Origin: Escherichia coli | Lineage (GTDB): Bacteria; Pseudomonadota; Gammaproteobacteria; Enterobacterales; Enterobacteriaceae | Length of the DNA stretch: 64,000 nucleotides | Assembly: GCF_002854065.1 (NCBI RefSeq) | Contig: NZ_CP024147.1 | Strand: one strand, 5' to 3' | Shown: positions 48,001 to 51,000 of the stretch, piece by piece | Numbering within the stretch: position 1 is the stretch's first letter | How the letters are laid out: each line of letters starts with the position of its first letter | Position numbers: made by a program

Positions 48001-51000
48001 AGCCATCCGTCATCCATATCACCACGTCAAAGGGTGACAGCAGGCTCATAAGACGCCCCAGCGTCGCCATAGTGCGTTCACCGAATACGTGCGCAACAAC
48101 CGTCTTCCGGAGCCTGTCATACGCGTAAAACAGCCAGCGCTGGCGCGATTTAGCCCCGACGTATCCCCACTGTTCGTCCATTTCCGCGCAGACGATGACG
48201 TCACTGCCCGGCTGTATGCGCGAGGTTACCGACTGCGGCCTGAGTTTTTTAAATGGCGGAAAATCGTGTTGAGGCCAACGCCCATAATGCGGGCGGTTGC
48301 CCGGCATCCAACGCCATTCATGGCCATATCAATGATTTTCTGGTGCGTACCGGGTTGAGAAGCGGTGTAAGTGAACTGCAGTTGCCATGTTTTACGGCAG
48401 TGAGAGCAGAGATAGCGCTGATGTCCGGCAGTGCTTTTGCCGTTACGCACCACCCCGTCAGTAGCTGAACAGGAGGGACAGCTGATAGAAACAGAAGCCA
48501 CTGGAGCACCTCAAAAACACCATCATACACTAAATCAGTAAGTTGGCAGCATCACCCAGATTGGTTTAATAATTTGTCTTTGTGAGTTAAATACATAATT
48601 TTATACTTGTGATGCAATGAGATTTTCCTTATTGTTGAACTGGCGAATATTGATTTTCCACCTATACTTACCTGGTGTAACCCCAATGATATCAGGTGGA
48701 TAATATGCCATACATATGTTCTATCATTTTGGTGTTGAACTCGTTTGATGTCCGAATTGGTAAAGAAGATATTTTGTTTAAAAAAGGAAGTGCTGTTCTC
48801 ATTGATTACAATTTGAAAGATTTTTTTTCATCAAATATAGATCATGTAATGATCGTAGATGTTGAAGAGAAAACAGTTAATGATTTCTTTAAAAGCAACA
48901 CACTCTCACCTTTTTCTGTAAGAAGGTTTTATCCGGCATACTTGATGGTGGAATGTGAAGATTTTTCATTGTTAAAGAACTTGATTGCATGCTTGAATTG
49001 TGATGGCAGAACTGTGGATTTTGTTAGAAATCAAATATCACTTGCATGTCTTGCTATCTTATCTTCAGAGAAAATAGTGCAAAGTTTTTTATTTGGATGT
49101 CTTAATAGTTTAGGAAGTAAAGTTAAGGCTATTATTCACACGGATATATCTGCAGCATGGAGACTTTGTGATATATCTTCAAGACTGTATCTGAGTGAAA
49201 GTCTGTTAAAAAGAAAATTAAAGCACGAAGGCTTATCATTTAGTAAATTAATTCTTGAAGAGCGAATGGTGATGGCGGAAAGGTTATTAAGCTACAATTT
49301 ATATTCTGTTGGAAAAGTTGCTGAGATATGCGGTTATGAAAACACGTCATATTTTGTAAGTGTTTTCAGAAGATATTTTGGTGTTCCTCCCCATCAATAT
49401 TCATCAAGATTTTTTTTAGAAAAAGACATGATGTAACGTGATGCGTTTTAATGATTTTGTAATTTTCGTATTTGATAATTGTATGCTGCTTTCAGCTACG
49501 CCAGAATAATCGCTGGCGTTTTTCTTTTTGAATAGATGTTCAAGCCTTACGCTAATGTAACTTCTATACCTTTCCTCTTCGTTCCGAACCGTGTACACCA
49601 TCCGTTATTTGCGGAGGTGAGGCGGTGATGCTGCCAACTTACTGATTTAGTGTATGATGGTGTTTTTGAGGTGCTCCAGTGGCTTCTGTTTCTATCAGCT
49701 GTCCCTCCTGTTCAGCTACTGACGGGGTGGTGCGTAACGGCAAAAGCACTGCCGGACATCAGCGCTATCTCTGCTCTCACTGCCGTAAAACATGGCAACT
49801 GCAGTTCACTTACACCGCTTCTCAACCCGGTACGCACCAGAAAATCATTGATATGGCCATGAATGGCGTTGGATGCCGGGCAACCGCCCGCATTATGGGC
49901 GTTGGCCTCAACACGATTTTCCGCCATTTAAAAAACTCAGGCCGCAGTCGGTAACCTCGCGCATACAGCCGGGCAGTGACGTCATCGTCTGCGCGGAAAT
50001 GGACGAACAGTGGGGATACGTCGGGGCTAAATCGCGCCAGCGCTGGCTGTTTTACGCGTATGACAGGCTCCGGAAGACGGTTGTTGCGCACGTATTCGGT
50101 GAACGCACTATGGCGACGCTGGGGCGTCTTATGAGCCTGCTGTCACCCTTTGACGTGGTGATATGGATGACGGATGGCTGGCCGCTGTATGAATCCCGCC
50201 TGAAGGGAAAGCTGCACGTAATCAGCAAGCGATATACGCAGCGAATTGAGCGGCATAACCTGAATCTGAGGCAGCACCTGGCACGGCTGGGACGGAAGTC
50301 GCTGTCGTTCTCAAAATCGGTGGAGCTGCATGACAAAGTCATCGGGCATTATCTGAACATAAAACACTATCAATAAGTTGGAGTCATTACCTGGGTGTTC
50401 ATCCCAATAAGTGATGAAAAATTAAACAGGTGTAAGTACGTCATCTGTCCGGTAAGCCCCCTAAGAGCCAAATTAAGTGAAGTTAAACGAAGACTGCCAG
50501 TTGTTACAGGAACGATGGCCTCTTTGCCAGGGCACTGCATTCAGTCATCTGTGCGCGTTACTCTAACTGGCACTCGAACGTCGGCGATGGGGTTACCGGT
50601 GGATCAGGCCGTTCCTGTGGCGTAAACGTTTTTATGTCAGTACCAACAGATTTACCACATTTATCATCTTAACAGTTTGAGTGTAAATGCAGGCTGCGTC
50701 GCAAAGGGAGGAAACTGAGTGGCGTGTTCAGTCTAAAAGAGGGTTGATGCCAGCATACAGGGCGAAGCTGGTCAACAAGTCAACATTAATATAATGGAAT
50801 ATTCGGAGAGAAACGTCAGGCAGTTGACCTTAAATGAACAGGAAGATACATCCCCAGGAAAATTAATGCTGGTGTAATAAATACACCAACATTAATCCGG
50901 TCTGATTATTAATCAGACAAATATCGTTAATTCGTCGAATTTTAAATCAACGTTTTTTCTTACGACCCTGAACGGCCTTAAAACGTGGATTAGATTTACA

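Follow-up and report, generated by a model that had tools for sequence, protein, structure and literature searches.

The 64,000-nucleotide stretch of Escherichia coli DNA analyzed here (the window; contig NZ_CP024147.1 of RefSeq assembly GCF_002854065.1) contains a lambdoid prophage remnant at the tRNA gene thrW, which is joined across a copy of the insertion sequence (IS) IS1 to the chromosomal spacer between ecpR (matA) and ykgL. Reading from thrW, the order is the integrase gene, exo-bet-gam-kil, IS1 copy 2, ybcN-ninE-rusA-Q, a lipocalin gene, a ybgA-family gene, an araC/ydeO-like gene and IS1 copy 4, beyond which the chromosomal backbone resumes (Table 1). The same junction occurs in E. 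coli CUWW06 (NZ_CP182139.1), a complete genome that is 100% identical to the window over 1,968 bp at this point and is the only one among 5,426 complete E. coli genomes to have it. Copy 4 is very probably the scar of an IS1-mediated deletion that took away the late region of the prophage together with adjacent core genes, among them the E. coli common pilus (ECP) operon.

A search for exact matches to both 39-nucleotide ends of IS1 recovers four copies in the window. In copy 4, the two ends are spaced 768 bp apart, and hence it has the length expected of IS1, about 768 bp, and the expected termini, imperfect inverted repeats of roughly 23 bp. It is 99.87% identical to IS1B and IS1C of K-12 and shares with them the insA and insB' frames and the A6C motif of the −1 frameshift between these. 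Its counterpart in CUWW06 is annotated in RefSeq as an IS1B-family transposase with a programmed frameshift. Copies 2, 3 and 4 are base-for-base identical. A target duplication of 8 to 9 bp, usually 9, is the mark of a simple IS1 insertion; perfect 9-bp duplications flank copies 1 and 3, and none is present at copies 2 and 4. The 9-bp flanks of copy 4 are AGGTGAGGC on the left and TGGGTGTTC on the right. This absence is no argument against its identity as an IS1; instead, copy 4 is thereby shown to have lost the setting of a simple insertion. Unlike an ordinary IS1 insertion, copy 4 has had one flank replaced, and hence it lacks the duplication. The initial annotation had recognized both this fourth IS1 and its lack of a target duplication, and the two observations hold, with the end of the element at 50391.

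On the left of copy 4, the prophage DNA ends at the base directly before the first base of the left inverted repeat (IRL), so that the breakpoint coincides with the IS terminus and the IS itself is intact. This breakpoint lies 1 nucleotide short of the start codon of essD, the holin gene; intact prophages continue here with T and then ATG. In SCU-102, the cargo module seen in the window runs straight into essD-rrrD-rzpD, followed by the terminase and portal genes. E. coli HS has a complete P22-like prophage at thrW, with the same integrase beside the tRNA and the late genes on the side far from thrW; hence, the missing late genes and right attachment site (attR) of the window would have pointed toward ykgL. 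The attachment core (36972-36994) is single-copy in the window, and accordingly there is no attR. Strain 100416 carries the same prophage, 100% identical and uninterrupted from the left attachment site (attL) to the lipocalin gene. The thrW prophage of the window is a remnant and not a complete member of the lambdoid group. It keeps attL, int, exo-bet-gam, ybcN-ninE-rusA-Q and three cargo genes, and has lost the immunity and replication region (at copy 2), the lysis and late structural genes and attR, the loss of which leaves it locked in. The lipocalin-ybgA-araC cargo module (45900-49436) is itself present in about 1,000 of the 5,426 genomes.

The right flank of copy 4 maps to position 311818 of K-12, within the spacer between matA (ecpR) and ykgL. 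The open reading frame (ORF) with a GTG start that had been noted 3 nucleotides past the IS1 does exist, but its description as ykgL-like is wrong. Its predicted product (VFIPISDEKL...) is unrelated to K-12 YkgL (b0295; MQAAPQREETEW...) and its position is different, the true ykgL lying further to the right as a pseudogene. RefSeq likewise calls the ykgL of CUWW06 a frameshifted pseudogene. No gene is annotated at the position of the 76-codon ORF in the RefSeq regions compared, neither its product nor YkgL matches a Pfam or NCBIfam family, and an Rfam scan of 48500-52000 gave no match. The spacer (50392-50686 in the window) has two classes of allele, which share about 92% identity. In the window, GF60, E1, STIN_95 and EC17, which have one class, the ORF is open; in K-12, PSJ-12, NCTC11023 and YJ4, which have the other, it is broken, a stop following 26 codons in the K-12-type allele.

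What separates the two flanks of copy 4 elsewhere is a conserved series of core genes. In K-12, the end of the thrW island and position 311818 are about 14.6 kb apart, with yagP-paoDCBA-yagU-ykgJ-ecpEDCBA-matA between them. In NCTC11023, a prophage remnant with the same Q-lipocalin-ybgA-araC-essD module lies upstream of that gene series and in the same orientation. Comparison with K-12, NCTC11023, SCU-102 and HS shows that both sides of copy 4 retain the K-12 order and orientation, which rules out a single inversion. The pao, yagU, ykgJ and ecp genes, the phage lysis and late genes and a second attachment core all find no match within the window. We further queried complete genomes with the two junction flanks together with 300-bp probes from ecpD, ecpA, paoC, yagU and ecpC. 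This query matches a median of five places per genome, and a single one, the junction itself, on the CUWW06 chromosome. None of the five probes has a second place on the CUWW06 chromosome record, nor is CUWW06 one of the 47 genomes found to have an IS1 joined to the ecpR-side flank, as the reciprocal junction would require. In the window and on the CUWW06 chromosome, the interval is therefore absent and not moved. The initial annotation had remarked that the genes expected from the K-12 gene order, including the ecp operon, are missing here, and had proposed an IS1-mediated deletion of the prophage late region and adjacent chromosome, which the discovery of the same genes elsewhere beside an IS1 would have spoken against. 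The genes are indeed missing from the window and present in both K-12 and NCTC11023, the computed comparisons with K-12, SCU-102, NCTC11023 and HS support the deletion, and the search of the CUWW06 chromosome found no such relocated copy.

Table 1. Features of the thrW-ykgL part of the window, with positions in window coordinates.
Feature	Position	Strand	Basis or remark
thrW, tRNA-Thr(CGT), prophage attachment site	36913-36988	+	ARAGORN
Prophage integrase adjoining thrW	37003-38163	-	ORF
exo, bet, gam (early-left genes)	40102-41866	-	ORFs; annotation of CUWW06 and strain 100416
IS1 copy 2	42197-42964	-	No target duplication
Antiterminator Q gene	45367-45744	+	ORF; annotation
Lipocalin cargo gene	45900-46424	-	Between Q and the holin gene
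YbgA-family cargo gene	46617-47576	+	2-thiouracil desulfurase and DUF1722 domains
IS1 copy 3	47789-48556	-	Simple insertion, 9-bp duplication CAGATTGGT
AraC/YdeO-like regulator gene	48705-49436	+	YdeO/GadX-like; last cargo gene before the lysis cassette
Probable left deletion endpoint, essD Shine-Dalgarno region GGAGGTGAGGC	49613-49623	+	Alignment with SCU-102
IS1 copy 4	49624-50391	+	Intact, 768 bp, IRL at left end, no target duplication
insA (in copy 4)	49679-49954	+	ORF, 91 amino acids
insB' frame (in copy 4)	49873-50376	+	ORF, 167 amino acids
A6C frameshift motif AAAAAAC (in copy 4)	49930-49936	+
Probable right deletion endpoint TGGGTGTTC	50392-50400	+	Equivalent to K-12 311818-311826
Mechanical GTG ORF in the ecpR-ykgL spacer	50395-50625	+	76 codons; starts 3 nucleotides past the IS1 end
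True ykgL	50687-50912	+	Pseudogene; two 1-bp deletions (alignment); starts 295 nucleotides after the IS1
ykgO (rpmJ2) and ykgM (rpmE2)	50947-51350	-	Chromosomal backbone right of the probable deletion

From these junctions, we infer the following order of events, route and loss in a single step. The starting point would have been a lambdoid prophage at thrW, with int beside the tRNA gene and the late genes pointing to ykgL, in a chromosome with an IS1 in the ecpR (matA)-ykgL spacer, at a 9-bp target also used by other lineages. All DNA from the IRL end of this IS1 to the position 1 nucleotide upstream of the essD ATG would then have been lost, that is, essD, any lysis, head and tail genes still present, attR, yagP-paoDCBA-yagU-ykgJ and ecpEDCBA-ecpR. 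The loss could have proceeded by intramolecular replicative transposition, whereby the IS stays put while its IRL end attacks a target elsewhere on the molecule, and the DNA in between is released as a circle and lost; the outcome would be an intact IS1 without a target duplication. The minimum loss would be roughly 14.6 kb of core genes, and it could come close to about 40 kb in all if the late region was complete.

An adjacent deletion of this kind, from the IRL end of the IS1 at the ykgL-proximal site, is the route we prefer, and we consider it, on a fine balance, the probable one. Two observations favor it. First, the right-hand target has been used again: PSJ-12 has an IS1A at the identical 9-bp target TGGGTGTTC, with a proper duplication and an intact ecp operon; this IS1 differs from copy 4 at 7 of 768 positions and lies in a different spacer flank allele. 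Second, copy 2 of the same lineage has itself given rise to a nested deletion. Where copy 2 lies, strain 100416 has 5,604 bp of immunity and replication genes (cI, cro, O, P and ren) that the window lacks. CUWW06 lacks another 662 bp (window 42965-43626) on the IRL side of copy 2, whereas the junction on the other side of the copy is shared. This nested 662-bp IS1-adjacent deletion provides indirect support for transposition over recombination between IS copies. TCTG occurs at both endpoints of the copy 2 deletion (42193-42196, at the end of the left flank, and 42965-42968, at the start of the right flank), which is probably a coincidence.

Adjacent deletions that begin exactly at the terminus of the IS have been documented for IS1 and Tn9 (PMC9330008). 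The classical deletions of the gal/Tn9 systems (PMC9330008) resemble the present case in starting at the IS terminus, in leaving the IS intact and in having an ordinary target site as their distal end; nested variants with one fixed end, as in the lineage of the window and CUWW06, are a further likeness. The differences are that this is a natural isolate in which the event was not directly observed, and that recombination of IS1 with IS1 would leave the same scar. An IS1-mediated deletion is a textbook event and nothing here is mechanistically new; what the locus offers is a clean, base-pair-resolved natural case in which IS1 has eroded prophage and core genome alike. Other cryptic, IS-eroded prophages at thrW, namely CP4-6 of K-12 and the remnant of NCTC11023, are likewise thrW remnants cut off at IS1 copies. 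In distinction to these, the erosion in the window extends about 14.6 kb (in K-12 terms) into the core chromosome and includes the ecp operon. The deletion explains a lineage without the otherwise near-universal ECP operon, paoABCD, yagU and ykgJ, and thus a strain without the genes for PaoABC.

Several points weigh against this account of the locus. The comparisons turned up no genome of this lineage that still has the interval and could show the ancestral state, the size of the deletion or the number of steps. The identity of copies 2 to 4 would hide a hybrid IS1 produced by recombination. The coincidence with an apparent hotspot is compatible with either direction of the event, since the hotspot could equally be the target of an IS1 that was first located upstream of essD. 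Finally, the absence of the interval elsewhere was checked in the sibling CUWW06, on its chromosome record only.

The second of these points bears on the strongest competitor, RecA-dependent homologous recombination. Here an IS1 would have inserted just upstream of essD and a second, in the same orientation, at the ecpR-ykgL hotspot, and their exchange would have left a single hybrid IS1 with one flank from each. Such an exchange predicts an intact IS1, no duplication and collinear flanks, just as seen, and PSJ-12 independently has an IS1 at the right-hand site. CUWW06 has at least 40 IS1-matching pieces, pointing to an IS1-rich lineage in which identical copies would be good substrates. However, this route calls for two prior insertions and a recombination where one insertion and one transposition suffice, and transposition is the simpler source of the nested deletion at copy 2. 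Further, the left-hand partner is not to be found: CUWW06 is the only one of the 5,426 genomes with an IS1 at the left junction, upstream of essD. In NCTC11023, an IS1 lies inside the araC-like gene, and in MINF_9A, judging from the match annotation only, an IS1 apparently lies between ybgA and araC, near the position of copy 3. We accordingly hold this recombination to be possible but doubtful.

The same empty left-hand site speaks against a transposition with the opposite anchor, in which the IS1 would have inserted first between the Shine-Dalgarno region and the ATG of essD and its right inverted repeat end would have attacked the ecpR-ykgL hotspot, deleting rightwards. The geometry of the junction fits this equally well, and intramolecular targets share the preferences of intermolecular ones, so that a known hotspot is a plausible target. 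However, the site upstream of essD is unoccupied in all other genomes searched, whereas the ykgL-proximal site has been occupied repeatedly and has repeatedly served as the fixed end of rearrangements (EA7, NCTC9008, EC17 and DA33133). This makes the opposite anchor unlikely, and the adjacent deletion from the ykgL-proximal IS1 is to be preferred.

Relocation of the interval by an IS1-mediated inversion or translocation, or the arrival of the AraC-like gene on a composite transposon of copies 3 and 4, is largely refuted already and most improbable: inverted IS1 pairs do invert DNA at this locus in cM8a and EC17, and the araC-like gene lies between copies 3 and 4, which face in opposite directions, but the backbone on both sides is in the K-12 orientation and CUWW06 lacks both a reciprocal junction and matches to the ecp, pao and yagU probes. 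In particular, an inversion between copies 2 and 4 is rejected because the flank exchange it predicts fails, and an inversion or composite transposon of copies 3 and 4 because a perfect duplication of its own surrounds copy 3, the window and SCU-102 are collinear over the ybgA-araC segment and the two copies differ in their outer flanks. An assembly artefact, a false join through a collapsed repeat of the kind for which a 768-bp multi-copy element such as IS1 is a classic cause, can be dismissed with similar assurance, as the identical junction is found in CUWW06, a sibling whose complete genome is a separate record, set apart from the window by several IS events and so not the same sequence, and nowhere on its chromosome do the missing genes occur.

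The ecpR-ykgL region has been a recurring place of IS1 rearrangement in E. coli, and the event in the window is one more of that kind. IS1 events are numerous from ecpA to ykgM: at least 47 of the 5,426 genomes have an IS1, in the orientation of the query, close to the ecpR-side flank. Simple IS1 insertions are found at five distinct sites in YJ4, STIN_95, H1827/12, E1 and PSJ-12. In GF60 and EA7, the IS1 ends lie 7 and 13 bp from the copy 4 target. Four independent IS1 ends fall within a 21-bp part of the spacer, two of them at the identical 9-bp target. The IS1 of GF60 (8001-8768 of its stretch) is flanked by an 18-bp duplication, ATGGTTATGGGTGTTCAT (about K-12 311811-311828), with one extra G; the usual duplication of IS1 is 9 bp, and one of this length is uncommon.

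In a set of genomes, EA7 among them, an IS1 in or near the ecpR-ykgL region keeps its ykgL-side flank and has foreign DNA on the IRL side without a duplication, as in the window. The ecp operon is replaced on the IRL-side flank by type I restriction and UvrD helicase genes in EA7 and by DUF2971 and GNAT genes in DA33133; in NCTC9008, corA is joined to the spacer on this side. EC17 has an inversion that reaches the yah genes, with yahF/allH-like genes joined, and cM8a has a local inversion in which ykgM-ykgR lie between two IS1 copies with exchanged flanks. The partner DNA and the outcomes differ between these genomes and the window, and only the window and CUWW06 join the spacer to the ribosome-binding site of the thrW-prophage essD. 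We tentatively raise the possibility that the ecpR (matA)-ykgL spacer is a genuine IS1 hotspot, a recurrent fragile site that seeds loss, truncation or inversion of ecp across E. coli. Selection might favor such rearrangements because they alter or abolish the expression of ECP, by analogy with the IS insertions upstream of flhDC or bgl, which are selected. A literature search for IS1 together with matA, ecpR or ykgL found nothing relevant. The apparent hotspot or fragile site upstream of ecpR is otherwise only a mildly interesting residue of the analysis.

The remaining copy of IS1 in the window, copy 1 (25934-27962), lies within a yafP-like GNAT gene, and its duplication is GACCCTGAA. About 1% of its positions differ from those of copies 2 to 4, and a 1,261-bp IS3-family element (approximately 26566-27826) interrupts it; the same copy in CUWW06 lacks the IS3-family element.

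Strain 100416, which shares the prophage, was considered as an ancestral reference for the deleted interval and rejected, its right side having been lost to a larger, IS5-bounded deletion. There (31882-34135 of its stretch), an IS5 connects the lipocalin-ybgA spacer (window 46514) with sequence immediately downstream of ykgA (about 63584 in the window); ykgL, ykgO, ykgM and fdeC are lost, and ykgA is split by an IS1. The "GyrI-like" fragment in this strain is the C-terminus of ykgA.

Other differences between the window and CUWW06 lie apart from the junction. CUWW06 has an extra 10.3-kb P4-like satellite, with an integrase and a primase, in tandem at thrW (window 36972-37838 against 3963-16495 of the CUWW06 stretch), an IS2 inside the integrase of the lambdoid prophage and an extra IS1 in dinJ-yafQ, all three of which are specific to it. 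Conversely, a type VI secretion/Rhs region of about 7.5 kb is present in the window (1843-10573) and absent from CUWW06, and a 1,263-bp IS3-family element beside this region is inverted between the two.

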